Below are positions 18,480 through 51,906 of a stretch of DNA of 64,000 nucleotides, piece by piece. The stretch's first letter is position 1, and the number at the start of each line of letters is the position of its first letter. The DNA is from a virus. A model generated the notes under the pieces. The model saw nothing but the letters and a program-made list of their open reading frames with translations, ran no database searches and was not told where the DNA came from. The position numbers and the translations under genes were made by a program. The DNA lies in the IMG/VR virus record IMGVR_UViG_3300045993_000562, positions 1 through 64,000 of that record, one strand, 5' to 3'.

Positions 18480-20960
18480 TTACAAACGTGGATCCAGACC
18501 TTTTTCCTTACCCAGCTCAGCAATCATCTTAACCATGAGTTCGGTTCTACGTTCACCTTTGTCGCTCAGCAAAGCCAAGGTCAATTCGTGCTCCTTGATA
18601 GAAGTACGCATTTTACCATTAGTTTTTTTCTGTTCGCAAAGCTTATCGTAACGTAGCCAAAAATCATAACCGTAGACAATTGTGAGGTAGGATTTGTTCC
18701 GAACCTTCATGTACGGTGCAACTTCCGGCTTGTAGTAACGAGGCTTAACTACGATGCCCTCCATACCTTCGGCTGTAGTCTTCTTATTGAAGAACTCCTG
18801 AGCTTCCAGCAAACCTACTGCAGTGTTTACAACGATAAACTCATCGTCAGAGACCTTGCTGTAAGCCTCATCTGCACTCATGGTTGTAACCTGCTCCACC
18901 CCATCAATACTAAGTATTGAGAATGGTTTAGCGTGAGGCTCCCCAACTTCCCCATACAACGCCAACTGTTGAAAGAAGACATTGAGGAACTCTTGACGTT
19001 CATCCAGTTTCAACTCTTTATGCAACGTGAGTTTAGCTAGCTCTTCATCATGATCCAAATCAGTCAGCTCATTGAGAACCAGATCACCGTAAGCCTGAAA
19101 GTCTCTATTAATGAGACCAGCACCCAGTAGAGACCAAGGCATCAGCTCACAGTCTAGGATCAACTCGCTTTTCCAGAAGTCTAGTTTAACGAATTTATCG
19201 AAGGCGTCACTGATCAGCTTCTGAATACCATCCTGGTGAACTACATACCCATTACGAGACACAGCGAAAGACTTCTCAGGAGTATCACGATACAGATAGA
19301 GTTGGCCACGAGAGCCCATGTACTTAGGCTCAATGACAACCTCCTCAACACCGTAGTCCTTGAAGTACTTCAATGCCTCTTCTAGGGACTCGATGTCATC
19401 CTTGGTAGAACGAGCCGGAGCCATTGTACCAGACACGTACTGCACTCGTGAGTTTTCCAACCTGCGCAGAGTCTTCAAGTCGTCATCCGACAAGTCATAC
19501 TGTTTCAAACTGAACTCTTGTTCCACTTTGATCGGAGTTACTGCATCGGTACGAAGAGCCTTTTCCTCGTACTCAAACAGTTTTTCACAATCAACTTGAA
19601 TCAAACGGTCTTGTTCAGCCATGATCACCATTGCCGATAACTTACCTCCGTAGACGGCACCAGTATCCAGCATATACTTGTTCTTATAGTTGATCCGCTG
19701 AGAACAATGAGCTACATGGCCCATTATGTGCATAGGGTGGTTACCCTTAGCTTCAGTGAATAAGAACTCATAATGAGGGCGGGCATCATCAGCCATAAAC
19801 CTACGCAAGTTACGTTGTTCACGTTGGGCGAAGTCTGACACCTTGCCGATGAACTCGTTCTTGCATGGTGCGTGAGTTACGTACACGGTTGGAGCGTTGA
19901 TACGAGTTAGCTTCAAGTAAGGTACGGAACGTGCCCATATCTCTACCACCTTATCAGCGTACTCTTGGTTTTCCGGCTTGAGCAAGAATCCTAATGAACT
20001 GAAGGATTTAGCTTCTAAGTCCAAGTTGGGATCAATCTCACCGAGGATACGTTTCACAACGTAGTTCTCATGATTGGCACGCACTACTATGGCACCCCTG
20101 GCGTTTACCAGAGTCCACACCGTGTCAACTATCTCCTTAGTGAAACCACCTTTGTCCAAGTAGTCACCGATCAGTACTATACGCACATTGTCATGAGTAT
20201 AGGTTGAGTCTACAATCCGTAACATATCCATCAGAGCGGTGTTATGTTCGTGGACGTCACCTACTATCACAAACGTATCATCACCCTCCAGAGTGTAGTT
20301 AGGTAACATGGCCAACCCGTTAGAATCAACGGTTACAACAAAGCCGCCTTCCACGTTAGGACTCTGATTGATACGATGACGCATACGATATACAGCGTCG
20401 TAGTCTTTAGAACGGGTAGATGGCATCACCTCAGTCTTGAATCGTTTTGCTTGAGCTGCAATAACAACACGATACTTGTGCTCACGGCCTTCCGGTATAG
20501 CGTCATAAAACTCAGAATGAGGCAGGTCAAACAGGACTAGTTGCACATGGTAACATGCATCCTTGGCAATCCTAGATACTTCATTGCGGAACCAAGGATC
20601 CAATCCCGTCGTGTCCACAATGACGTATGGAGTATTGACGGGGAAAGAGGTGAAGGCCTTTAACTCTGCGAACAGAAGTTGGAAAGCTTGCTCAGACAGT
20701 TCCTGCATCTCAGTAGTACAATAACTAGGGGTTTCCTTACCGGTAAGCACACTGCGGTAAGCATCACTAGTAAGAACAGAGACTGGACGCAGGCCTACCT
20801 TAATCTCATTAAACAGCTTCAGATATCCCTTCTCCAACTCAGCCGCCAAGTTCCAAGCGAATGTAGTCTTACCACAACGAGAAGGTCCAGCCAGAATGAA
20901 CACCGTGTTTAATGGCGCTGAGATCTGAACTTGACTCTTTTTCAAAGCAACGGCGGTCAT
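18480..20960 (-). CDS. pnkp: Polynucleotide kinase-phosphatase-ligase (Pnkp)
   Basis: P-loop GPSRCGKT; metallophosphatase GDVH/GDYLDKG/NHE; ligase motifs EPKYMGSR and EGIVVKP. Confidence 0.9.
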   Translation of the reverse strand: MTAVALKKSQVQISAPLNTVFILAGPSRCGKTTFAWNLAAELEKGYLKLFNEIKVGLRPVSVLTSDAYRSVLTGKETPSYCTTEMQELSEQAFQLLFAELKAFTSFPVNTPYVIVDTTGLDPWFRNEVSRIAKDACYHVQLVLFDLPHSEFYDAIPEGREHKYRVVIAAQAKRFKTEVMPSTRSKDYDAVYRMRHRINQSPNVEGGFVVTVDSNGLAMLPNYTLEGDDTFVIVGDVHEHNTALMDMLRIVDSTYTHDNVRIVLIGDYLDKGGFTKEIVDTVWTLVNARGAIVVRANHENYVVKRILGEIDPNLDLEAKSFSSLGFLLKPENQEYADKVVEIWARSVPYLKLTRINAPTVYVTHAPCKNEFIGKVSDFAQREQRNLRRFMADDARPHYEFLFTEAKGNHPMHIMGHVAHCSQRINYKNKYMLDTGAVYGGKLSAMVIMAEQDRLIQVDCEKLFEYEEKALRTDAVTPIKVEQEFSLKQYDLSDDDLKTLRRLENSRVQYVSGTMAPARSTKDDIESLEEALKYFKDYGVEEVVIEPKYMGSRGQLYLYRDTPEKSFAVSRNGYVVHQDGIQKLISDAFDKFVKLDFWKSELILDCELMPWSLLGAGLINRDFQAYGDLVLNELTDLDHDEELAKLTLHKELKLDERQEFLNVFFQQLALYGEVGEPHAKPFSILSIDGVEQVTTMSADEAYSKVSDDEFIVVNTAVGLLEAQEFFNKKTTAEGMEGIVVKPRYYKPEVAPYMKVRNKSYLTIVYGYDFWLRYDKLCEQKKTNGKMRTSIKEHELTLALLSDKGERRTELMVKMIAELGKEKGLDPRL

Positions 20961-22237
20961 GCTATTACCTCCTTTTTCTTAAAATGTAACAGGATAGAGG
21001 AATGGATACCGTCTACGCTGTCACCAATTCCACGTAGGTCATCTGGGAGGATGCCATGCTGAGTCAGTACCTCACTAAACTTACTAGTACCGAGTTCCCA
21101 CTTATGGTCGCTGTGACGAGAGCCTTCTTCTGAGATGTCATAGTTGACGTTGAAGTCCTTATTAGGAACGGTGATTACAATCTGGTTGTAGTCGGTTTTC
21201 AACAGGGCTCGAAGTAACGACATGGCTTGATCCAATTCCATGTGCTCAATCACTTCAGTGAGTAAGATATCCGCCCCTTCTAGCATATAAGCAGCCGTAT
21301 CAACATATCCTGCATTGATCTCCTCACAGGTAACTACAACGTTTTCCAGCCCCCAACCTTTAGCTTTTCCAGTGCTGTCTTCTGCCACCACTGGATCAGC
21401 ATCAAATGCATCTACCATGCCATACTTTTTAGCTAGGCGTTTGGAGAAGAACAACTCTCCACATCCAACGTCTACTAAACGCTCTCCACCTTTTAGTATC
21501 TCGGCCACTGCATCAAAGCGGTGTCTGCGAGTGTCACCATAATTCATCACAGTGCCGGCTAGTTGCATACTTTCACGATACGTGTTGAACGTATGCTTAT
21601 CCGAGAACACGGTGCGGTTGAACAGGTAACGGATGAAGTACGGTGCATTGACACGGTTCAGCGCACGAATGTAGAACTCGATTGCAGAAGCGTTCATGTC
21701 AATGTAACACTCTTTATCGTACATAGCCTGAATGAGACAGAATACAACCATCACGTTCAGAATAGTCTGTACCGAGTTACCCTCGATATGTATGGTGTAC
21801 ATTTGTCCGGATAGAATCCCCATCTCGATTTTAGCCATGTTCACGAAGTGACGAGCACAAGCTGAAGCAATCTTAGGGTTTGAAACCTTGATTACTGTCT
21901 CAACGTAGCTAGTGAATTCCGGTGTATCAAACTCACTCTCTTTCTTGAGAGCTGAGGCTAATGCAGTAGTCACCATGCCTATTGGGAGATATGGGCTGCT
22001 GTACCTGGTTTTATCAAGGTATTCCCATTCGCTAAAACTTACAAAAGAGACTTCAGTGTCTGAATCCTTAAATAGGAGTTTGAACTCTGAATCATCTGCT
22101 TTATTAAACCAACCATATAGTTTTCCTTTACGAAGATCTCTTGTAAAAGGCTCCAGCGAGGTGCGGATGGTTGCTGGATTTTTGGACAAAATAAAAGACA
22201 ACTTGGGGTTATTAGACCCTACTTTCAATATAGACAT
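20957..22237 (-). CDS. hen1: Hen1-like RNA 2'-O-methyltransferase
   Basis: N-terminal LSFILSKNP ligase-activating domain; DVGCGE, EVIEH, TVPN.DFN and RHSDHKWE motifs; overlaps the pnkp start. Confidence 0.88.
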   Translation of the reverse strand: MSILKVGSNNPKLSFILSKNPATIRTSLEPFTRDLRKGKLYGWFNKADDSEFKLLFKDSDTEVSFVSFSEWEYLDKTRYSSPYLPIGMVTTALASALKKESEFDTPEFTSYVETVIKVSNPKIASACARHFVNMAKIEMGILSGQMYTIHIEGNSVQTILNVMVVFCLIQAMYDKECYIDMNASAIEFYIRALNRVNAPYFIRYLFNRTVFSDKHTFNTYRESMQLAGTVMNYGDTRRHRFDAVAEILKGGERLVDVGCGELFFSKRLAKKYGMVDAFDADPVVAEDSTGKAKGWGLENVVVTCEEINAGYVDTAAYMLEGADILLTEVIEHMELDQAMSLLRALLKTDYNQIVITVPNKDFNVNYDISEEGSRHSDHKWELGTSKFSEVLTQHGILPDDLRGIGDSVDGIHSSILLHFKKKEVIA

Positions 22238-23655: not shown

Positions 23656-25251
23656 TTATTGTTTTGTTAAGATGATTGCTTCAATCTCTGCTTGGGTTAC
23701 ACCTCTATGTACTACTTCGGCGTTACCCCAAGAGGTTCCTATCTCAGCTTCAACTCCGATTGGAATATCTAACCATGGGAAAAACTCCATAGGCCAATCG
23801 TTCATGTATTTGAATCCAGCCTCTACTGCTGCTGCTGCATTGTGGAGAGGAACCTCCCATTCACAGCTGTCGAAAACAGTGCATATTGCCTTACCTCCTA
23901 ATGGCTTCATTCCACTGTTATTCAATTCAGCGAATGCCACCAAACCTAGCGTGGATGTGGGACTTTGAATGTATGCGTTTTGGGAATTTCTCAAGGCTGC
24001 GTTATAGGCTGCAGTCTTTCGAAAGCAATCTAGAGTCCCATACTCTTGCCTCCTTTGACCGAATGGTGTAACTATTCTCTGATTAAGTTTAGCCTGCATA
24101 TGTACAGTCTCAATAAAGGTCTTTACCTTTGGAAACTTATCAAAGTATAGGTTTATCAGCCCCTTAGCCTCATCCTCTGAAATGTTCAGGCCTACTGCAA
24201 TACCTTTGGCACTAGATCCATAGACTATACCGAATCCAACAGCCTTAGCACCCTGCCTTAGTTGTTTATACCTAGAGTTTTCCTTGGCCGTCTTATCTTT
24301 TAGTACAGCCTTAAACTCATCATATGGCACACCCAACATTGATGAGGCCGTAAAGGTATGGAAGTCGAAACCTTTAAAACAGGCCTCTTTCATGGCATCA
24401 TCTCCAGATAAACATGCTAGAATTTTCATTTCAGCACTGGAGAAATCGAACAATATCATTACGTTACCTGGCTCTACATCGTAACAATCACGGATGTTGT
24501 ACCCGTGTTTAGGTCTAGGTATCTGAGTAAGGTTGGGTTCCCCACCAGTTATCCTAAAAGAACTGGTACCATGTAAGAAGTAGCCGGGGTGCAGTCTAGA
24601 ATCATGTTTTACGAAGTCGTCAATGTAGTTCGTAATGAACATGTTTTTTGAGGAGTTGATATCTTTTAACTTCGCTAGCCATGCTAGATATTGATGATCT
24701 GGGTTCTTGGGTATGTAATTACCAGGCTCTTTAGGGTCTATGCCTGCTAGAAGTAGGAGGGCGTCCCCATCGGTACTAGGTTCACCGGAGGTTGTTGTAT
24801 ATGGGGCTATAAAGTTCTTCTCGCCGTATAAGAACTTCTGCATTTCTATCCCAGAAGAGTAGTTTATCTCTCTACCTATCATTTTGAAAACCCCATCCTC
24901 TAGTATGGCAATTTCTTCAGCCATACTAGTATTGATTCTACGGTTCTCAGCCTTGTTGTAGTGTAATCCATTGATCTCTAAATCTAAAATGTAATCCAGA
25001 GTTTTCAACGTCACATCTTCATTAACATCAATAAGGGCTGGCATGTTGACCTTGTTAAAGGTATCCCCACTTACACTCTCAATGAACTCAGGCCTCTCTA
25101 TCAACCTAGGAAACACTTTAGAAAGCAACCTGCTGGTCGCTATACAATCTAGCCCAGCATAGAGGTTCAGCTTATCGTATTCGAAATCCTCATACGTCCT
25201 ATAGACTGGTTTGGTTTCAGCTTTCGCTTCCCCCGTTTGAATCACTGCCAT
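23656..25251 (-). CDS. polA: Family A DNA polymerase, ExoIII plus polymerase domain
   Basis: YAGLD (ExoIII), PNLTQIP, DFSSAE, RQGAKAVGFGIVYG, TVFDS; own AAGGAG RBS before ATG at 25251. Confidence 0.9.
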   Translation of the reverse strand: MAVIQTGEAKAETKPVYRTYEDFEYDKLNLYAGLDCIATSRLLSKVFPRLIERPEFIESVSGDTFNKVNMPALIDVNEDVTLKTLDYILDLEINGLHYNKAENRRINTSMAEEIAILEDGVFKMIGREINYSSGIEMQKFLYGEKNFIAPYTTTSGEPSTDGDALLLLAGIDPKEPGNYIPKNPDHQYLAWLAKLKDINSSKNMFITNYIDDFVKHDSRLHPGYFLHGTSSFRITGGEPNLTQIPRPKHGYNIRDCYDVEPGNVMILFDFSSAEMKILACLSGDDAMKEACFKGFDFHTFTASSMLGVPYDEFKAVLKDKTAKENSRYKQLRQGAKAVGFGIVYGSSAKGIAVGLNISEDEAKGLINLYFDKFPKVKTFIETVHMQAKLNQRIVTPFGQRRQEYGTLDCFRKTAAYNAALRNSQNAYIQSPTSTLGLVAFAELNNSGMKPLGGKAICTVFDSCEWEVPLHNAAAAVEAGFKYMNDWPMEFFPWLDIPIGVEAEIGTSWGNAEVVHRGVTQAEIEAIILTKQ

Positions 25252-26557
25252 CTTCACTTTCTCCTTCTTCGTTTTCATCCTCACCCTCAGTTGTTCCAGG
25301 GGCAGTACTTCTACCTTTGGTCAACTTTGGTAATAGATTTTCATATCCGCCAATACTTAGTTCGGGGGCGAAATCCCAAATTGCAGTTTTAAGAGAGAAC
25401 GTCCCTTGGGCACCGCTATCCAAATCATGCAAAAGAAGCATGGTATCGAACTTTACCCCTTGTAGTCTTATACCCGTAGTATGGAAAATCATTAAAATAT
25501 CAAACTTGATATTATGACCAACCTTATACATAAGAGGATCTAAAAGAACTGGTGCCAATAAAGCCCAAGCTTCATCAGGGTCATAGTAGGTGTTACCACT
25601 ATGCCATAATGGAATTACCACTGCTTTATAGATAGGCTCACCATTCTTGTCGCAGCTAGTACCGTCCCTCCAACCGAATTGAATAGTCAGAAGCTTAGCG
25701 TCTATAGCCATAGGATCCAAACCATTCGTCTCCGTGTCAATCGAGGTTATAGATCCAGTACCGCTGAAACTGGCCAACTTCGCAACAGCTTCACGAACGT
25801 CTTCAATGCTTTGACATATTGAGATATTCCGAACCTGAGCCTGTACGCCTTCCTCCAACGTCAGTAACTTCAAATCGCCACGTGCAAGCCTGGCTGCCTT
25901 CTCGAAGTCTCTACGAATTACCTCGAAGTAGTCATAGCTCCACATAGCCCCAGATGCGTTCTGACGAATCATTGTCAGTGCTTTAGGATGTAGTGTGATA
26001 ACTACTTGACTACCCAATGCATTAGTAATCTCTCCTCGGTTACCGGTATTAGAATGCTTCAACAATCCTAAGGCCTTAGTTACAGCCGTAGTTAGGCTGA
26101 TGATCACTTTAGGTTTAGTGCGTTCAATCTCACCTAAAAGATAAGGCCTACACTTCATCAACGTTCTCTGTGATGGAGACTTTCCTTTAGGGAAGTTCTT
26201 TAAGTCATTAGGACACTTAAGCAAACTTACTACTTGATACGTTAATTGTCCAAACCCAGCCTTATCGGCTAACGTCTGAATGATACCTTTGTTAATTATC
26301 TCTCTTTGATCGTCTCTATAGTCGTACTTACCTCTGAGTTCAGGATGGTCCTGGATTATCAGAATGTCAACCGGCTTATTCAAAAGGGAAACCTTGGAGG
26401 GATTCTTACATGGGAGAATACATACCTTCTCACAGTAAGTCTTAGATAAAGAAGAGAAGTCTTCCTTAGCTAATATTGCAATCTCCACCGATGGCGTCAT
26501 CTTAGGTTTAGCGTACAACTCGTCTAGAGGCAAATCTTTCGTTGTTAATCTTGCCAT
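25217..26557 (-). CDS. Family A polymerase N-terminal subunit: UDG-like plus 3'-5' exonuclease (ExoI/II)
   Basis: KC..CRPYLLGEIERTKPKVIISL..TLHP (UDG family 4-like); DTETNGL, GHNIKFD, DTML; acidic tail. Confidence 0.85.
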   Translation of the reverse strand: MARLTTKDLPLDELYAKPKMTPSVEIAILAKEDFSSLSKTYCEKVCILPCKNPSKVSLLNKPVDILIIQDHPELRGKYDYRDDQREIINKGIIQTLADKAGFGQLTYQVVSLLKCPNDLKNFPKGKSPSQRTLMKCRPYLLGEIERTKPKVIISLTTAVTKALGLLKHSNTGNRGEITNALGSQVVITLHPKALTMIRQNASGAMWSYDYFEVIRRDFEKAARLARGDLKLLTLEEGVQAQVRNISICQSIEDVREAVAKLASFSGTGSITSIDTETNGLDPMAIDAKLLTIQFGWRDGTSCDKNGEPIYKAVVIPLWHSGNTYYDPDEAWALLAPVLLDPLMYKVGHNIKFDILMIFHTTGIRLQGVKFDTMLLLHDLDSGAQGTFSLKTAIWDFAPELSIGGYENLLPKLTKGRSTAPGTTEGEDENEEGESEDGSDSNGGSES

Positions 26558-26773
26558 TATTAGACTCCATTTAATTAAAAAGAGGGTACCCAAATCGCCA
26601 TGACTTGGATACCCCGAGGCTCTCATTGCTCTAGGAGGAGATTTTGAGCCAGTTGCTTTTTCCGGAAATCCAGATCTGCAACATGAAGACATTTGCCGTT
26701 GGGAGAAACAGCATCCTTCTTCACACTATACTTATACCACAAAACCACTACTTTGTTTAACCAAAATAAGGCT

Positions 26774-29520: not shown

Positions 29521-30030
29521 CTAGTAGTAGATCTTTCCTTCCAACTTATCTTTCTCCATCTGATCATACCTAGCTTTGAGCTCGGCGTTCTCATCATAGG
29601 AAAGTCCCAACACTTGCATCATCTTCTTCTTAACTAGCACGTTAGGTATTCTTACCCCCCTCAGCAAGTTAAACCCCATCAGTGATGCTACCTCAGCCAC
29701 GGCACCTGAGCGACAGATACCGGCATGACAGTGAACTACGACGTTCATGTTCTGGGATTTAGCTAAGTCAAGAGCTGCCACTATGGCCAACGCTTGGCTA
29801 TCCGTAATAGTAAACTCCCCGTATACGGGATGGTCAGCATTATCACAATCAAAGAACTGGAACTGACGTACTTCCTTGAACTTATGTGCAGGTTTGGGGA
29901 ATCCATCAGTTGAGAAGAACGACGCATTACCTGGGTCGGTTATCTGAATGAGCATTGCATTATCGCCGCAATCGAAGTGAACTCCTTCTCTTACGGCTTC
30001 TGCACTTACGTTTTGTATGAATGGGGTCAT
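29521..30030 (-). CDS. Tyrosine/dual-specificity phosphatase-like protein
   Basis: VHCHAGICRS P-loop. Confidence 0.85.
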   Translation of the reverse strand: MTPFIQNVSAEAVREGVHFDCGDNAMLIQITDPGNASFFSTDGFPKPAHKFKEVRQFQFFDCDNADHPVYGEFTITDSQALAIVAALDLAKSQNMNVVVHCHAGICRSGAVAEVASLMGFNLLRGVRIPNVLVKKKMMQVLGLSYDENAELKARYDQMEKDKLEGKIYY

Positions 30031-30165
30031 ATTATTTGACCGCGGTTGTGTTTTTGTGTTTCAAGGATTTACGCAGTAACTTGAGCCAAGTAGCTTTCTC
30101 CCCTTCCACATCCTTAGCCACACACTTCCCGTACAGCTTTTTAATCAGTTCCTTCACTTTCATTT

Positions 30166-30906
30166 TTAGACCCCCCAGTAAATTATGCTCCAAGTGCCGT
30201 CTTCAGCTTCTACTAATGCTGAACACGACTCAACCCAATCTCCGTCGTTCATATAGATTACCCCTTCAATAACCTTGATTTCAGGAGTATGGATATGCCC
30301 ACAGATAATACCATCATAGTTGTGATGCTGACAGTATCTGACTAGAGTTTTTTCGAACTCAAATATAAAGCTAACAGCCTTCTTCACATTGTGCTTCAAG
30401 TACTTACTGAGACTCCAGTACCCGAACCCTAGCTTATGCCTGAACCAATTGAACTTACCGTTCACCCATAACAGTACGTCATACGCCTTATCCCCAAGTA
30501 TACCGATCCACGGAGCAAGCCTGGTTATTCCATCGAACATATCACCATGAGTTATTAACAGGAGGTTACCGTCAGTATCTCTGTACTCAGCGTGGTTGAC
30601 TACTTGGATGTTACCAAACATCAGTTGAGAGATGAATGGCCTGAGGAATTCGTCGTGATTACCTGTGACGTAGGTCACCCTTACACCCTTACCGGCCATC
30701 TTCAGAACTTTGCTGATGACTTTAGTGTGAGACTTTTTCCACCGGAGTTTGTTCTGTTGAATCTTCCAGCCGTCAATGATATCCCCGACTAGAAAGAGAT
30801 TGTCACACGTGTGATTCTTTAGGAAGTCCAACAATATATCAGCCTGACAATCGTTGGTACCTAGATGGAGATCCGAAATGCAGATCGTTTTAAAATGAGT
30901 CTTCAT
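30166..30906 (-). CDS. LpxH-like calcineurin metallophosphoesterase
   Basis: SDLHLG, GDIIDGW, GNHD, HGD, CGHIH and NDGDWVES motifs. Confidence 0.85.
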   Translation of the reverse strand: MKTHFKTICISDLHLGTNDCQADILLDFLKNHTCDNLFLVGDIIDGWKIQQNKLRWKKSHTKVISKVLKMAGKGVRVTYVTGNHDEFLRPFISQLMFGNIQVVNHAEYRDTDGNLLLITHGDMFDGITRLAPWIGILGDKAYDVLLWVNGKFNWFRHKLGFGYWSLSKYLKHNVKKAVSFIFEFEKTLVRYCQHHNYDGIICGHIHTPEIKVIEGVIYMNDGDWVESCSALVEAEDGTWSIIYWGV

Positions 30907-30925
30907 CAGACCTCCTATCATTAAG

Positions 30926-31234
30926 TTACTTACACGTGTAAGTGTAAACCACACGCTTGTTGCCACGACCTGTCACACAGGTACGGTTAGCCTTACCATT
31001 ACAGGTCGTGTAAGGGAAGTTGTTAGCCGTAGCCTTGGAATCATTGCGCCACGAGGCACGCTGATCCTTGTTATCCTTGCTACGGGCCCACGCACCGGAC
31101 TTGTGATCCTTGGTTGTTTTGCCTGTACGAGGCTTGATCTTGCTCTCACCAGAGTTAAGCTTTGGTGATTCAAAGTGACGAGCAAAACGGTTGTCTTTAG
31201 CTTGTGCTACCGGTGCTACTACTGCTTTTGCCAT
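30926..31234 (-). CDS. Small basic hypothetical protein
   Basis: K/R-rich ORF with AGGAG RBS. Confidence 0.6.
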   Translation of the reverse strand: MAKAVVAPVAQAKDNRFARHFESPKLNSGESKIKPRTGKTTKDHKSGAWARSKDNKDQRASWRNDSKATANNFPYTTCNGKANRTCVTGRGNKRVVYTYTCK

Positions 31235-31282: not shown

Positions 31283-31357
31283 TGGTCGGTTAGGTAAGAC
31301 TCGAACTTACATGCTCCTGGCCCCAAACCAGGCGACTCACCTTTAGCCTACTAACCG
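31283..31357 (-). tRNA. tRNA-Pro(TGG)
   Basis: Cloverleaf, CCTGG-TTTGGGG-CCAGG, CCA. Confidence 0.9.
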
Positions 31358-31542
31358 AAATACCCTGATCTAATGCTAATCTGTAACTTTACCCAGAACA
31401 ACATCACTTCAATTCTTCTGACTTCAATTAGCTCCCCTGGAGTTTTAGAGGCCATACTACATCTATAACAGCATACAGCTGGTAGTATGAAGAATGCTGC
31501 GCTTCTTTTAAAGAATGTTAGTTCCATACATACTCCGTTGAT

Positions 31543-31617
31543 TGGCGCCCAATGTCTGATTCAAACAGACGACCTACCGCTTACAAGGCGGTTGCTCTAT
31601 CACTGAGCTAATCGGGC
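31543..31617 (-). tRNA. tRNA-Thr(TGT)
   Basis: ACCGC-CTTGTAA-GCGGT, CCA. Confidence 0.9.
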
Positions 31618-31622
31618 AAAAC

Positions 31623-31708
31623 TGGTGGGTAGGCCAGGACTCGAACCTAGATAGCCGGAGGCGACAGATTTACAGTCTGCTGATTTAACCATATTTACCA
31701 TCCTACCC
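31623..31708 (-). tRNA. tRNA-Tyr(GTA)
   Basis: GCAGA-CTGTAAA-TCTGT, long variable arm, CCA. Confidence 0.9.
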
Positions 31709-31715
31709 TCAATTT

Positions 31716-31791
31716 TGGCTCCCCGACGTGGACTCGAACCACGGACCTAAGCATTAACAGTGCTTTGCTCTACCGACTGAGCTATCGAGGA
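31716..31791 (-). tRNA. tRNA-Asn(GTT)
   Basis: AAGCA-CTGTTAA-TGCTT, CCA. Confidence 0.92.
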
Positions 31792-31800
31792 ATACAACTA

Positions 31801-31835
31801 TAAAACAAAAACCCCAGATTTTTAGGCCTGGGGTC
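31801..31835 (-). terminator. Intrinsic terminator (attenuator) before the tRNA cluster
   Basis: ACCCCAG-gcctaaaaat-CTGGGGT followed by TTTTGTTTT. Confidence 0.8.
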
Positions 31836-31860
31836 GGATTCTTTGGAACTACGAAACGTT

Positions 31861-31947
31861 CTAACTAATCTTAACCCCGAGCACGGTCGAGTTATCCTGT
31901 GAAGGATTACTTGTTGGTGTGTAATAGGAGTTATAGATCGGTTTCAT
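31861..31947 (-). CDS. Putative attenuation leader peptide MKPIYNSYYTPTSNPSQDNSTVLGVKIS
   Basis: 28 codons; 10 of codons 3-15 are Pro/Tyr/Asn/Thr; overlaps the antiterminator arm. Confidence 0.7.
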   Translation of the reverse strand: MKPIYNSYYTPTSNPSQDNSTVLGVKIS

Positions 31948-31954
31948 AGTGAGT

Positions 31955-31983
31955 ATATTAACTCAGAACCAGGAGAGTTGCAA
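31955..31983 (-). promoter_or_regulatory. Sigma70-type promoter for the leader/tRNA operon
   Basis: TTGCAA-17 nt-TAATAT, with the ATG 7 nt downstream of the -10 box (leaderless). Confidence 0.65.
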
Positions 31984-32015
31984 GCCTATTTTCATAAACT
32001 TGCAACTTTACCCCT

Positions 32016-32408
32016 TTACAACGCTTCGATCATTTCCTTGATTTCTTCAGGCGTCTTGTTTGCCAGTGCTTCACCTTCTTTGGCAGCCAAGATAGACAAG
32101 AGATACTGCTTCTTAGTCTTATTAGCCACTGCGTTAGCAGAAGCTTCATCTTCAGCCAGGCGAGTATCAATCACATGCTTGATGATGTCAAACTTCAACT
32201 GAGTCGTAGTGCTGACCTCAGTTTTCTTCGTTACGAACGAAATCTCGTTACCAGATTTTAACTCCTGGTACAGAGGTTTGATCATATCGTCCAGATTTAC
32301 AGAACCAGCACGGCCTGAAAGTGGAACGTCAAAGAGGTCTTCTACTACCAACGAGCCCTTAGGCGTGTCGAAGCGAAGTTTAGCACGAGCTGCTTTTTCG
32401 AATAACAT
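32016..32408 (-). CDS. Conserved phage protein
   Basis: MLFEKAARAKLRF...G.L.VEDLFD pattern, recalled as partner of the upstream large protein. Confidence 0.65.
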   Translation of the reverse strand: MLFEKAARAKLRFDTPKGSLVVEDLFDVPLSGRAGSVNLDDMIKPLYQELKSGNEISFVTKKTEVSTTTQLKFDIIKHVIDTRLAEDEASANAVANKTKKQYLLSILAAKEGEALANKTPEEIKEMIEAL

Positions 32409-32421
32409 GGCTGTTCCTTTC

Positions 32422-34437
32422 TTAGAACACTACTTTAACTACACGATTGAAGCTACCCTTAACGCGGCACAGAACACTGTTGCGCTGAGTAGAGGAGAAC
32501 CCGATGCCGCTTAGTTGGTGATCAGAATTGTCCGTTTTCATCTTGGACCCTACGACCTCCAATACCTTACGGTGGGGGGTTAGCTCTTCAGCCAGGAACT
32601 CATTGAAGAATCCACGGGCTTGGCCATCATTGACACATCCGTCCAACATGAACATGTAATGCTTATTACCAACTACCTTGTCGTCCCAGTGGTTTGGAGA
32701 CAGCATGACTACGGAAGCCTTGTGGAAAGACTCTGTAGAAACACCCCAAACTTCCTTAGATGACTTAGAGGAAGGTAACGACTCAACGATCTCAAATCCA
32801 CTGGCGTGAGTGTACTTGATCTTGGCTACGGTGACGGTGACGCCATTAGGTACCGCCTTAGCGTAGTGAATACTGTGGATGATTCCATCGTACTCAATCT
32901 CAATGTCAAAACCAAAGTCCACGTTCTCACGTTTACTGAAGTTATGGACCTCAAGACGGTAATTACCCTCTTTCATGTTACGGCGATTTGGATAGCAGAT
33001 ATTCTCTACTGGAGTGCGGGTCGAACCGTGCCCAGCATTCATATCTACGTCTAATACCCCCCTGGTTGAAGCACTATGTTTACTACGGAAGCAGATTTCG
33101 TTACCGCCAGGCTCCATCATGTGCAAGTCCAAGTCATCGTGGTTGAACCAAGACAACGAGCAACGTAGGTCTCCATCAACCTTACCACCAGCCTGTTTGA
33201 CACGCTCTTTGATGGAGTCTGCAACTTCACCGATATACGACCAGGAGAAGTTGTTAGGCCACTTAAGCATACACTTAGCTGAAGGGTCAACTGGTGCAAT
33301 GAGACTGACGAGGTTACTAGTATGGCGATTCTCCACAAACACTTCTATGGATTCAGCCTTAGGCAAGACGTTATGCAAGAAGGTGTCAATGTTGATTTCT
33401 TCCACCTTGTCAAAGTTCTTGACGTTCTCGGTAACGCCACTTGCAATCACATCGAATACGTCCTTAGACATCTTCTTCTTGGCTTCACGATCTGCAAACA
33501 GAATGTTGTTCACAGTGATGTCGTCGATGGTAGCGTATCTGCGCTCCAGGGCCGTATCCAAGCCTAGCTCGTGTATTGTAGCTTTGGCTTTTTCCACCAT
33601 CGCTTTAGTTACTAGAGCTGTAGGTCGCTTGTAGTTAGTAGGGGCCACCATGGCTTCAAATGACTTTACAGCGTGTTCCAGGTCCTTACCTTCTGATAGG
33701 TCGACCATCAATGTTCCAATGGAGGAATTACGGATCTTACATACCGCCCCACCAGCCTTGATCTTGGACCAGCAGAAGACATCCCGATCAACATCAGTGA
33801 CTAAGCCACTGAATATGATTTTCAGAACCTTAAAGGCCTTAACGAGACCTTCATGTTCTTCCCCACGATACAGAGACTTTTGGCCAATTAGCTCCAGAAC
33901 GGTATTGATGGAGTCCTCGGTTATCTCTGTGAGACTACGTAACAACACGTCCTTAGACGAACGAGCCTCAGAAAGACGTGGTCCGATCTCCTTACCGTCA
34001 ATTACATTGGCGGCAGGAATCTGAGCGAAGAAGTGATTCCATGTTATGGTCTCTACGGCTGTAGCTTCATAGTTCTTGTCGAGGCCGGCCATATTCTCCG
34101 TATGGAAAAAGGGCTCTTCGATGACGCTAGCTTTGATTAGGGCTGACATGGCACCTGCTACTACTTGGTAGAATCCTTCAGCCTTAACATCCCACACACT
34201 GATGAGCTTACCGTCAACCACGGCTACTACGTCACCTACATCACGGATGAACTTCCTGCAGCACTGGCAATCATGCTCTGTGCGTTCACGGAACTTTGGG
34301 TTGGTACCTTCTGGAAAGCTATTGAGATACGTGTTCCACAAGACGTCCTTCGCTAGACGCACTCGAAACAGGTCCATACCTTTCATGCTGTTGAACTGAT
34401 TAGTTACAGCAGCTTTTAAACTCAAAAACTGTGACAT
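32422..34437 (-). CDS. Large phage protein with YfaP/DUF2135-like domain
   Basis: HDCQCC near the N-terminus; SLSW..DDLDLH...LDVDMN...PVENI. Confidence 0.65.
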   Translation of the reverse strand: MSQFLSLKAAVTNQFNSMKGMDLFRVRLAKDVLWNTYLNSFPEGTNPKFRERTEHDCQCCRKFIRDVGDVVAVVDGKLISVWDVKAEGFYQVVAGAMSALIKASVIEEPFFHTENMAGLDKNYEATAVETITWNHFFAQIPAANVIDGKEIGPRLSEARSSKDVLLRSLTEITEDSINTVLELIGQKSLYRGEEHEGLVKAFKVLKIIFSGLVTDVDRDVFCWSKIKAGGAVCKIRNSSIGTLMVDLSEGKDLEHAVKSFEAMVAPTNYKRPTALVTKAMVEKAKATIHELGLDTALERRYATIDDITVNNILFADREAKKKMSKDVFDVIASGVTENVKNFDKVEEINIDTFLHNVLPKAESIEVFVENRHTSNLVSLIAPVDPSAKCMLKWPNNFSWSYIGEVADSIKERVKQAGGKVDGDLRCSLSWFNHDDLDLHMMEPGGNEICFRSKHSASTRGVLDVDMNAGHGSTRTPVENICYPNRRNMKEGNYRLEVHNFSKRENVDFGFDIEIEYDGIIHSIHYAKAVPNGVTVTVAKIKYTHASGFEIVESLPSSKSSKEVWGVSTESFHKASVVMLSPNHWDDKVVGNKHYMFMLDGCVNDGQARGFFNEFLAEELTPHRKVLEVVGSKMKTDNSDHQLSGIGFSSTQRNSVLCRVKGSFNRVVKVVF

Positions 34438-40184: not shown

Positions 40185-41876
40185 TTACGCTTGTATTCCA
40201 TCGTACTCCTCCATCAATCGTCCACGGATTTGAGCCAACGTCTGTTCTTTAACCAGTACGCCGTCCTTGAAGACTACCTCCAAGCAACCTTGAGCTTCTT
40301 GCTCCCAAGTCTGTTGGTCGTACAGAACGTACTTACCGTCCTCACGTTCAACACGGAGTAAACCCTTGGCGGATTTCTTCATGCCGTCATCAGTCTTTGG
40401 ATCTTTGAACAACTCACGGAACTCACCATCAACAATAGCCGCTGTGGCTTTAACTGCCATTCCATAAGAGTCTCTCGTAACAAATTGGTACGAAAAGCTA
40501 CCGACGCCATACACGGAATTACCACTAGAGAAGCCTTTTCCAGCCAATATAGCACAAATTTCTTCTGCACGACTGACGGTTATAGAGTCACCGTAGATAA
40601 GTCCTACACGTTCATGTAGTTGCTTGAATCCCTTATCGGTAATAGTGCCCCCAAATATACCCCATAAACATTCGACTGCACCTACAGCTTCAGGTACAGA
40701 GATTTGACGACCGTACGTCATTACTAGGCTGTCGTCCTCATAGTCACCAAGGGCTGAGGCCGTATGGTATATACCTCTATTCTTCACGGCTTCATAGCAG
40801 TTCTCCCAGAACTTAACTACGTTGGAATATACTTCAAGACTACCATCTATTGAAGTATTCCACACTTTATGACCACATAGTATCTTTACAGGATCACCAC
40901 TATCTGGGCGGAATACTACCTTTGCCATACCAAGTGCATTCACTGGGCGGTTCAGAATCACTTCCTTAAGCTCATGGGCCGTGATGGTGATGACCTTCCA
41001 GAAGTCCCAAGTATCCGACACTACCGAGACAATACCTGATGGGGTAACTTCTGTAATCAGGCGACGAATGGTTTCTACTTCATTCTCGTTCCCACCAGCG
41101 CAGATTACACTATGCTCGCTGGCCGGAACACTACCTCCTACCATCTCTTTTTCCGCATCGGCACCATAGAAATTCTCGGCGTAGTCAATAGCCGCTATGG
41201 TATCTGTACCGAAGAAAGAAATTAGGTGACCTAATCCGGATTGAGAAGCATCATGTAAACCAGAAAGCCCACGCTCACTAAAGTCGTGAGCTTGCCACTT
41301 GACGAAGTCGGGATGAACACCGGTCAACTCTGCATACTTGCGCAGAATCTTGTAGTACTCAAATGCAGTAGTAGCACTAGTGATAGTCTTCCAAGTTTCG
41401 CAAGACAGGGACGTCTCTAGATAATTAGTCAACCAGAAGAAATCAGGATGCGTATTCTTGATAGTGTAGACAGGAACCCGCATAGGAACCAAACTACCTT
41501 CAGGCAATGCCTTTATCTCAATAGGCATATATCCTAGATCGTGTAGGGCTTCAAATCTGGCCATAGAGACCGAGTCGGGACCTAGTGCCGCATCCATACG
41601 ACGTTTGTACTTTGCGACTACCTCATCCTTTGGTTGACTGAAGAACTCTTGATTCCAGCAGTCTATGAGGAACCATTTGATAAAACCTTGTAGTCCTGCA
41701 AAGACCACCGTCTCTGGGCATCCGTCATCAGATCTAATGTGCTCCGAACGACTAGCCGAACGCGGTGTCATATTTGAGTAGATCATTTCAGTACCTTTGG
41801 GGTACATTTCCGCATGTGAGACTTTGTAGAAATCACATGCTGTCAGGGGGTTTATTGGGAAATACGATTTTGACAT
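40185..41876 (-). CDS. Nicotinamide phosphoribosyltransferase-like (NARP1 Namat candidate)
   Basis: DFYKVSH, HDFSERG, ASEHSV, SVVSDTWD, RPDSGDP and KKSAKG motifs. Confidence 0.9.
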   Translation of the reverse strand: MSKSYFPINPLTACDFYKVSHAEMYPKGTEMIYSNMTPRSASRSEHIRSDDGCPETVVFAGLQGFIKWFLIDCWNQEFFSQPKDEVVAKYKRRMDAALGPDSVSMARFEALHDLGYMPIEIKALPEGSLVPMRVPVYTIKNTHPDFFWLTNYLETSLSCETWKTITSATTAFEYYKILRKYAELTGVHPDFVKWQAHDFSERGLSGLHDASQSGLGHLISFFGTDTIAAIDYAENFYGADAEKEMVGGSVPASEHSVICAGGNENEVETIRRLITEVTPSGIVSVVSDTWDFWKVITITAHELKEVILNRPVNALGMAKVVFRPDSGDPVKILCGHKVWNTSIDGSLEVYSNVVKFWENCYEAVKNRGIYHTASALGDYEDDSLVMTYGRQISVPEAVGAVECLWGIFGGTITDKGFKQLHERVGLIYGDSITVSRAEEICAILAGKGFSSGNSVYGVGSFSYQFVTRDSYGMAVKATAAIVDGEFRELFKDPKTDDGMKKSAKGLLRVEREDGKYVLYDQQTWEQEAQGCLEVVFKDGVLVKEQTLAQIRGRLMEEYDGIQA

Positions 41877-48279: not shown

Positions 48280-48580
48280 AAATGGGCCGGGATCATTATC
48301 ACCCAGCCCACTCTATTCTAGCTCTGGTTAGAAACCGCTAGACAGGTTCCGCTTAGGCTTGTGCAGCCCATGCTCCTTGCGAGTCGTTTGCAGGTATTTT
48401 ACTTTTGCCATTTACGTCGGTCAACTGACGATTCCATCGAATGTTAGTAATACTAGATCGAGTCTGTATCTGGCCCATTAAGAAGACCCCTTGGTAAGAG
48501 TCTTTTTGGTGGACCGGCCGGGGTACTGCCCCCCGGGTCTCCAATATCTTTCGCATTCAATGCTTTACAGGTTACCCTGT
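48280..48580 (-). ncRNA. ssrA: Permuted (two-piece) tmRNA, tag ANDSQGAWAAQA (outer ends approximate)
   Basis: Acceptor 3' piece ...CCGGGGGGCAGTACCCCGGCCGGTCCACCA (CCA at 48507-48509) precedes 5' GGGCCAG (48476); G3-U70 pair; tag ORF 48353-48391. Confidence 0.85.
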
Positions 48581-51224: not shown

Positions 51225-51257
51225 GTTGTTTAAATGTTGCTTATTCAAAGCCAATCC

Positions 51258-51906
51258 TGGGCGGTACTGGACTTGAACCAGTGACCAAAGGATTCGTACC
51301 ACTTCGTCTTTCGACGCCAACACTCCAAACTCCACCTTAGACTATATATCACCATCAGCGAGCTTCATTTCCTTTTAAGGATTATTGTTCGTGGTCTGGA
51401 CTATGCTATCACCGTATTTACCCTTTAATACCTACTACTCTTCAATCGAGGCGTGGTCTATTTCGTAAACTTAGGCATTCCGTCTCTAGTCTCTACACCT
51501 TCCTTAAATCAGATTAGACACCTATTCGCTCCGTAGAGGGTGTTCTGGAAATCTGCACCACGGGATACAACTATTGTTTAAACCTTCATAATACAAGGTC
51601 TCCCAATTAAGGCTTGGCTCGGCGTTGGCATTCTAATTACAGGTACACCCCTCTCTCATAGTCATGACGGAGTGTTTAAGTTTAGTGACTAACCTATTAT
51701 TAGTGAAGCGTCCGCCGAATTTACGGAAATTCATCTAGCGTCTTTCGATTGAGTTGTTACGCCAGTGTCCCGTGGAATGCCGTTACCGACAATTGCTTGA
51801 CGGGAAAGGGGGCTTAGACTCACAGTAAAGACTACCAACTCATTTTTCACTAGCGCACAATTTTACTGATGAGTCCTCTGCTCTAAACCAACTGAGCTAA
51901 CCGCCC
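51258..51906 (-). tRNA. tRNA(CAT), probably Ile2, split by a group I intron
   Basis: 5' exon 51869-51906 ends GAGGACTCAT; 3' exon 51258-51294 is AATCCTTTGGTCACTGGTTCAAGTCCAGTACCGCCCA. Confidence 0.85.
51295..51868 (-). mobile_element. Group I intron (IC3-like), no homing ORF seen
   Basis: Inserted after U, ends in G; core elements AAATTCGGCGGACGC, CCGAGCCAAGC, GAAGGTGTAGAGACTAG and ATAGTCC. Confidence 0.85.

Follow-up and report, generated by a model that had tools for sequence, protein, structure and literature searches.

Introduction

Among the regulatory leaders so far described, those closest to the element reported here are the enterobacterial attenuators thrL, ilvL, trpL and hisL, of which thrL (Thr, Ile) and ilvL (Leu, Val, Ile) are multivalent. 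The element lies on a 76-kb viral contig from the IMG/VR database (IMGVR_UViG_3300045993_000562, estimated to be 43% complete), within the first 64 kb that we analysed – hereafter the window – and precedes a cluster of four phage tRNA genes. It shares with the enterobacterial leaders a short promoter-proximal open reading frame (ORF) rich in several candidate sensed codons, alternative 2:3 and 3:4 helices with a candidate 1:2 pairing, a stop codon placed to cover segment 2 and a terminator before the genes. Our reading of the sequence, to which we give a probability of about one half, is that the element is a translation-coupled transcription attenuator of the leader-peptide type, built around a leaderless ORF. 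It differs from the enterobacterial leaders in what it would control (phage tRNAs, not biosynthetic enzymes) and, if the reading is true, in what it would sense (tRNA supply, not amino-acid supply); moreover, it has no Shine-Dalgarno sequence, its codon runs are weaker (three codons for each of four amino acids) and there is no sequence homology.

Sensory ORFs that are leaderless are established in the actinobacteria: the polycysteine small ORFs of mycobacteria (bioRxiv 10.1101/834739) and ilvL, leuL and metL of Streptomyces (PMC8079986) are examples. In Alphaproteobacteria, too, leaderless mRNAs occur frequently (PMC4117421). As in the actinobacterial cases, the sensing ORF of the phage element would stand at the 5′ end of its transcript, and stalling would remodel the RNA downstream. 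The mycobacterial polycysteine ORFs, however, unmask a ribosome-binding site – a control of translation that involves no terminator – and the hosts and regulated genes are different.

Two further systems bear comparison. In T-box riboswitches the choice of a leader RNA between terminator and antiterminator reports the status of a specific tRNA, but there the uncharged tRNA itself is the ligand, and both the specifier loop and the T-box sequence are conserved. Membership of this class was considered and rejected: there is no match to an Rfam T-box even at E up to 10, and the antiterminator of the phage element is without a UGGN bulge. The second system is the VapC5 circuit of Mycobacterium abscessus, where cleavage of tRNA by the toxin is reported to lead to codon-specific stalling and to turn on leader-controlled genes (PMC10287673). 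The likeness is that loss of one tRNA switches expression through ribosome stalling; the difference is that the VapC5 circuit, as reported, is bacterial and controls no tRNA genes.

Phage tRNAs are currently accounted for either as supplements that adjust codon usage or as replacements for host tRNAs cut by defence nucleases. To our knowledge, almost nothing is known of how their expression is controlled. The element was originally proposed from the letters of the sequence alone, with the remark that no such device was known to have been described for a phage tRNA operon; our full-text searches of the literature agree, having found no attenuator described for tRNA genes, phage or bacterial.

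Results

Promoter, leader ORF and terminator

A sigma-70-like promoter, TTGCAA-17-TAATAT, is present at 31955..31983 (-35 at 31983..31978, -10 at 31960..31955), just as the original prediction had it, and is followed after 7 nt by the ATG (31947) of the predicted 28-codon ORF. This leader ORF (31861..31947, stop codon included) encodes MKPIYNSYYTPTSNPSQDNSTVLGVKIS and ends at 31861. Beyond it stands an intrinsic terminator, comprising a 9-pair stem, an 8-nt loop and a U-run (31801..31835; stem 31835..31810), which ends 10 nt before the first of the four tRNA genes. All four genes named in the original prediction are found after the terminator: tRNA-Asn(GTT) at 31716..31791, tRNA-Tyr(GTA) at 31623..31708, tRNA-Thr(TGT) at 31543..31617 and tRNA-Pro(TGG) at 31283..31357, each detected by Rfam too (tRNA-Tyr at 32.6 bits). 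Promoter, ORF, terminator and tRNAs are carried by the minus strand, as is every other feature of the window for which coordinates are given below.

A search with the 130-amino-acid (aa) protein encoded just upstream returned relatives at 71%, 67%, 57% and 55% identity and lower. Two metagenome contigs of the 71% lineage, L006 and L007, have the same unit at the same site: a tetraloop hairpin, promoter, ORF, hairpin B (described below) and terminator with U-run, then tRNA-Asn. The comparison that follows covers these two lineages and three sequences (window, L006 and L007).

The promoter motif alone proves nothing, since TTGCAA-N16-18-TANNAT, although it has one sole match in the 64 kb, finds at least one match in 49 of 100 shuffles. 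In L006 and L007 the sequence TTGCAA-16-TAAAAT occupies the same place, with TGT just upstream and a spacer that differs in sequence. An inverted repeat (31976..32007) overlaps the promoter and begins immediately beyond the stop codon of the 130-aa gene; it would form a 14-bp RNA hairpin with a GAAA (GNRA) tetraloop, and its 3′ arm contains the -35 hexamer. Folding the alignment with L006/L007 shows two pairs of this hairpin changed on both sides and several G-U pairs replaced by A-U or G-C. Given that it has no U-run, a 3′ stabiliser or processing site is a likelier role for it than termination.

No Shine-Dalgarno sequence precedes the leader ORF, in the window phage or in L006/L007 – a point on which the original prediction was silent – and the ORF would therefore be translatable only as a leaderless mRNA. 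In this it is unlike the remaining genes of the phage, which start from Shine-Dalgarno sites. The ATG is found 6-7 nt past the -10 in both lineages, a position that fits leaderless initiation, and if the promoter is real we infer that its transcript begins on the AUG or immediately beside it. Between the terminator and tRNA-Asn there is no conserved promoter in either phage, and so transcription of the tRNAs from the leader promoter needs read-through of the terminator in both.

Alternative helices

The heart of the unit is a pair of mutually exclusive helices, which fold as originally described. Segment 2, GGGGUUAAGAUU (codons 24-27; 31867..31878), ends 3 nt before the stop codon in both phages. 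Its partner in the antiterminator (2:3) is segment 3, AAUC.CGACCCC (31830..31840), which pairs alternatively with segment 4 to make the terminator (3:4). Of the two helices 2:3 is the stronger: the window sequence gives -17.0 kcal/mol and L006 -18.4, and the corresponding values for 3:4 are -13.2 and -14.1 kcal/mol. In L006 the 2:3 helix has a paired insertion (GAUU/AAUC becomes GAAUU/AAUUC) and a U-G pair changed to C-G, covariation that is thin in being drawn from two lineages, and the RNAalifold consensus of the alignment is the 2:3 helix. The terminator is kept in L006/L007 together with its U-run and shows one change from G-U to A-U.

Segment 1 (31927..31939) corresponds to codons 4-7, and in the minimum-energy fold its sequence GAUCU.AUAACUCC makes 12 base pairs with segment 2; when the N-terminal part is shuffled 400 times, 6 of the shuffles pair equally well. 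In L006 a sequence unrelated to segment 1, at codons 6-9, takes up this pairing less convincingly. Although the 1:2 helix of the original prediction, TAACTCGA/TCGGGGTTA, is possible on paper, the minimum-energy fold does not contain it and L006 offers nothing equivalent. Of the trp/his-type architecture then proposed, the ORF, the antiterminator (2:3) and the terminator (3:4) are conserved, but a different pairing takes the place of 1:2.

Two small hairpins complete the picture. Hairpin A, AUCCU-UCAC-AGGAU (31894..31907), is identical in the relative and is possibly a pause hairpin. Hairpin B, GAAC-N8-GUUC (31861..31846), belongs to a block of 27 nt (31843..31869) that is invariant in the two-lineage comparison and extends from the last two codons and the stop through hairpin B to CCAA. 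Left free, the full-length RNA adopts 1:2 together with 3:4 (-37.4 kcal/mol, z = -2.5), and masking a ribosome footprint at codons 2-11 of L006 flips the minimum-energy fold to the antiterminator. No Rfam family matches the leader; one weak match, to a toxic small RNA family, was dismissed (E = 3.1).

Conservation of the leader

Nucleotide identity between the two lineages is 82.6% for the leader, as against 70-76% for the flanking genes (52-54% at third positions) and 58-79% for the tRNAs. Conservation of the whole 150-nt stretch exceeds that of the neighbouring genes; it includes an invariant block of 21 nt in addition to the 27-nt block, and the -10 is kept while the promoter spacer diverges. 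Mismatches within the ORF are spread evenly over codon positions 1, 2 and 3, which shows that it is the RNA, not the peptide, that is under selection.

In L006/L007 the ORF begins with ATGATG, 6 nt after the -10, runs for 29 codons (MMNTNINSAIYTPSNPSQDDGVLFGVRIS) and ends at the homologous TAG. Its length has changed relative to the window by 6 nt in the N-terminal part, which cannot be aligned, and by an internal indel of 3 nt. The chance of an open frame from the predicted +1 ATG to the same TAG is ~0.005 per phage: with the non-conserved stretches shuffled and their length freed, such a frame came up in ~0.5% of trials per phage. The frame having been noticed first in the window, L006 provides a fair replication of it. 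The two leader peptides keep a C-terminal pattern, VL(F)GV[KR]IS, and the leader peptide matches nothing in Pfam or PHROG and contains no hydrophobic segment. An RNA constrained at the nucleotide level, still translatable and with a drifting peptide is, as far as sequence comparison can speak, the signature of a regulatory leader ORF.

Beyond L006/L007 no further carrier of the leader emerged from the viral, metagenome and genome contigs searched by protein and DNA pattern. A scan of the window, the rest of the contig and 35 other loci with covariance model R1 detected no second copy. A blastn search against GenBank phages gave the tRNAs as the sole match. The original prediction had suggested looking for short ORFs with terminators upstream of other phage tRNA clusters; a small survey (L026, L027, L029, L030, Stenotrophomonas phage Piffle and Variovorax phage V45v66) turned up no promoter-ORF-terminator unit, the gaps containing either nothing comparable or HNH genes.

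Codon content of the leader ORF

The proposal that the leader monitors the tRNAs behind it came from a count that we can repeat: ten of codons 3-15 specify Pro, Tyr, Asn or Thr. Standard wobble rules allow the four tRNAs to decode all ten, and of 650 short ORFs in the window one alone, the leader ORF, reaches 10 such codons in 13. Over its full length the ORF has 12 Asn/Tyr/Thr/Pro codons in 28, compared with 17.9% in the long ORFs of the phage (binomial P = 0.0013); dinucleotide shuffles of the window leader give P = 0.03 for the count and P = 0.001 for the best 13-codon window. In L006 there are 9 such codons in 29 (binomial P = 0.05; shuffles P = 0.10 and 0.006, respectively), and 4 of the 10 codons in its non-homologous N-terminal part specify Asn or Thr (P = 0.04). 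The other two reading frames hold 6 and 4 such codons.

The codons are also loaded toward the front of the ORF, with 8 of the first 12 against 4 of the following 16 in the window (P = 0.03) and 7 of 14 against 2 of 15 in L006 (P = 0.04), the 12- and 14-codon windows having been chosen after the folds were seen. L006 and L007 have no tRNA-Tyr, and here Tyr codons number 1 as against 3 in the window (Asn codons 4 as against 3). The expectation that related phages would conserve both the leader and its codon bias is borne out for the leader itself, which L006/L007 retain; the codon match is modest (P = 0.001-0.03 in the window, 0.006-0.1 in the relative).

Genomic setting

The unit sits between two modules. 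Upstream is a pair of genes of unknown function, one of 671 aa (34437..32422, phrog_1735) and one of 130 aa (32408..32016, phrog_2018); downstream are the tRNAs, phosphoesterases and a polymerase. Directly after tRNA-Pro comes a 102-aa gene with its own Shine-Dalgarno sequence (31234..30926), and behind the tRNA cluster and this gene a calcineurin-like metallophosphoesterase (266 aa) and a dual-specificity-phosphatase-like protein (169 aa) are encoded at 29521-30966. These two phosphoesterases might be end-healing enzymes.

Spacers within the tRNA cluster are mosaic. In the window a 58-aa ORF with a GGAG site (31351-31527) lies between tRNA-Thr and tRNA-Pro. The L006/L007 cluster reads Asn, Thr, Pro, Val (followed in L007 by Asp and Gln); a 61-aa ORF replaces tRNA-Tyr, and an HNH-like C-terminal remnant stands between Thr and Pro (L006 4698-5114). 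The site after the 671-aa/130-aa pair is a recurrent home for tRNAs in very distant phages (34-37% identity), namely L026, L027, L029, L030 and L037, the last being Stenotrophomonas phage Piffle (MZ326857.1); this distant tRNA-bearing set includes an N4-like phage. In L002 and L003 the site is occupied by RtcB instead of tRNAs.

Elsewhere in the window, a Hen1 gene (20957..22237; Hen1_N at E = 1.7e-46 plus a methyltransferase domain) adjoins a Pnkp gene (18480..20960) with kinase, metallophosphoesterase and PNKP ligase domains; judged by these domains the phage has the bacterial-type RNA repair-and-methylate pair. A permuted (two-piece, alpha-type) transfer-messenger RNA (tmRNA) is recognised by Rfam at 48359-48580, with 73 and 62.8 bits, above the gathering score, and is absent from the ARAGORN output for the window; its alpha type is a hint that the host may be alphaproteobacterial or similar. 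At 40185-41876 a 563-aa protein of the NAMPT/NAPRTase family is encoded, consistent with a counter-defence module for NAD salvage. Upstream of tRNA-Arg(CCT), a long non-coding stretch at 51230-51900 includes a tRNA-like 3′ half (GGTTCAAGTCC and a CCA-like end) that no tool called. Finally, a strong terminator-like hairpin of 14 pairs with a T-run (26583-26615) falls within the 5′ part of an ORF with UDG-like and exonuclease domains (26692..25217), whose true start may for this reason lie further downstream.

The contig, which represents an uncultured phage, occurs in wetland and pond metagenomes, and four wetland/pond DNA runs contain the stretch; no RNA-derived run is listed among the runs that contain it. 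The leader region is identical across contigs from those runs, which consequently yield neither population variants nor transcript ends.

Discussion

If the unit is a leader-peptide attenuator, it would work as follows. The sigma-70-like promoter would start a leaderless transcript at or beside the AUG of the 28-codon ORF. In this transcript segment 2 would have two possible partners: segment 1 (codons 4-7), and segment 3, which doubles as the 5′ arm of the terminator. With the stop codon placed 3 nt after segment 2, a ribosome that finished the ORF would bury segment 2; the 3:4 terminator would then form and a transcript of ~145 nt would be released. A ribosome held within the first ~12-14 codons would cover segment 1 and leave segment 2 free to pair with segment 3, in which case no terminator would form and polymerase would continue into tRNA Asn-Tyr-Thr-Pro and the genes behind. 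Because Asn, Tyr, Thr or Pro is specified by 8 of the 12 early codons, the likely signal would be slow decoding of those codons, the very codons that the downstream tRNAs read, and the loop would be self-limiting. The point at which transcription begins, the translation of the ORF, the kinetic competition between folds and the identity of the sensed codons are inferred parts of this model.

Several findings weigh against this account. Some concern the RNA itself. With a ribosome placed at any codon, the terminator stays the equilibrium fold of the window leader; there the outcome would be kinetic, as in the trp leader, in which 3:4 is likewise the more stable helix. The naked RNA of both phages prefers 2:3 before the 3′ arm of the terminator has been made, so that the default state depends on kinetics and a ribosome-free transcript might also read through. 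The 1:2 pairing of L006 is equalled in 65 of 400 shuffles, and the 27-nt block is invariant though the neighbouring genes are only 70-76% identical, an invariance for which attenuation has no need. The missing Shine-Dalgarno sequence makes translation hinge on a predicted start that falls exactly at the AUG. Other points concern the codons: the enrichment shrinks when composition is held fixed (shuffle P = 0.03 in the window and 0.10 in L006), and Ser, for which there is no tRNA downstream, is similarly enriched (5 of 27 codons, P = 0.03), so that the peptide can also be described as simply polar and of low complexity. Lastly there is distribution. The unit comes from only two lineages (three sequences), too few to establish covariation between leader and cluster; other tRNAs of the phage – Leu(TAG), Leu(TAA) and Arg(CCT) – stand between genes without a leader, as do the tRNAs that distant relatives carry at this same site.

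These considerations bear most heavily on what is sensed. The claim that the leader responds to exactly the four downstream tRNAs has in its favour a modest enrichment and a two-point covariation with tRNA-Tyr, but Ser is left unexplained and the composition-aware tests are weak. That the leader senses these particular tRNAs is thus a part of the model that we put forward tentatively.

The alternative that survives best, though we think it rather unlikely, is that the unit is a stand-alone small RNA of ~145 nt with its own promoter and terminator, perhaps acting in trans through the hairpin B block, the tRNAs being expressed by leakage through the terminator or from upstream transcripts and the frame being incidental or secondary. 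The conservation pattern, RNA-like and not protein-like, would be expected of such a molecule, and a terminator hairpin with a U-tail is the usual 3′ end of a small RNA. The invariant blocks of 27 nt and 21 nt include hairpin loops, as would a seed or a protein-binding site, and they are better explained by a small RNA than by attenuation. What a small RNA leaves without explanation is the +1 ATG in both phages, the kept frame (chance ~0.005) and, again in both, the pairing of segment 2 with the 5′ arm of the terminator. Nor does the leader belong to an Rfam family, the tRNAs are without a promoter of their own, and a search of the window for a trans target of the invariant block found nothing above chance (best complement 11 nt, 0.26 expected). 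Attenuator-derived RNAs that act in trans are known (PMC6614838). A dual role, in which the unit is an attenuator and the RNA that it releases is functional, is possible and would account for the 27-nt block.

A second alternative takes the terminator to be a promoter-proximal temporal gate, overcome by a phage or host antitermination factor in the manner of lambda PR′-tR′ and Q, or by a put-type RNA, with the invariant blocks serving as recognition or pause sites. A strong-looking promoter, a short terminated transcript and then an operon is indeed the layout of the lambda late genes: as with the 6S RNA of PR′-tR′, a phage promoter produces a short terminated transcript before an operon that requires read-through. 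The location of the unit between two gene modules would suit such a gate, and the invariant blocks exceed what pairing needs. Lambda, however, relies on a protein that modifies RNA polymerase and uses neither a leader ORF nor an antiterminator helix; a gate of this kind could dispense with the conserved ORF and with the 2:3 helix, yet the unit has both. No gene for an antiterminator emerged, no systematic search of the 76-kb contig for Q- or N-like proteins having been made. We consider a gate distinctly unlikely.

Two further explanations can be set aside as very improbable. In one, the functional product is the peptide of 28-29 aa, made from a conventional small gene complete with promoter and terminator; conservation of the ORF with the same stop, and of the C-terminal VL(F)GV[KR]IS, is what such a gene would show, but the mismatches have no third-position bias, the N-terminal third cannot be aligned, and the peptide lacks Pfam and PHROG matches and any hydrophobic segment. 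In the other, the unit is nothing but the terminator of the upstream operon – at which read-through transcripts from the 130-aa gene would stop – accompanied by a chance ORF and a promoter-like motif no rarer than in shuffles, a coincidence hard to square with a 150-nt stretch conserved beyond its neighbouring genes, a -10 kept while the spacer diverges and an ORF replicated in a second lineage.

Returning to attenuation, the genomic setting suggests what the device might be for. The Pnkp/Hen1 pair and the permuted tmRNA, both on the same strand as the unit, fit the idea that the phage meets anticodon nucleases, and these genes, the phosphoesterases and the RtcB of relatives fit a phage much concerned with damage to translation, although the fit is circumstantial. 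It is conceivable, if doubtful, that the phage gauges its supply of Asn, Tyr, Thr and Pro tRNAs by ribosome stalling and makes replacement tRNAs, and possibly the products of the genes behind, only when decoding is slow, for instance after attack by host anticodon nucleases, alongside Pnkp/Hen1 and tmRNA. Were attenuation at this locus to prove true, classic leader-peptide attenuation would be extended to tRNA genes as its output. The ribosome would then be a direct gauge of tRNA supply, in a simple and testable feedback loop for counter-defence.

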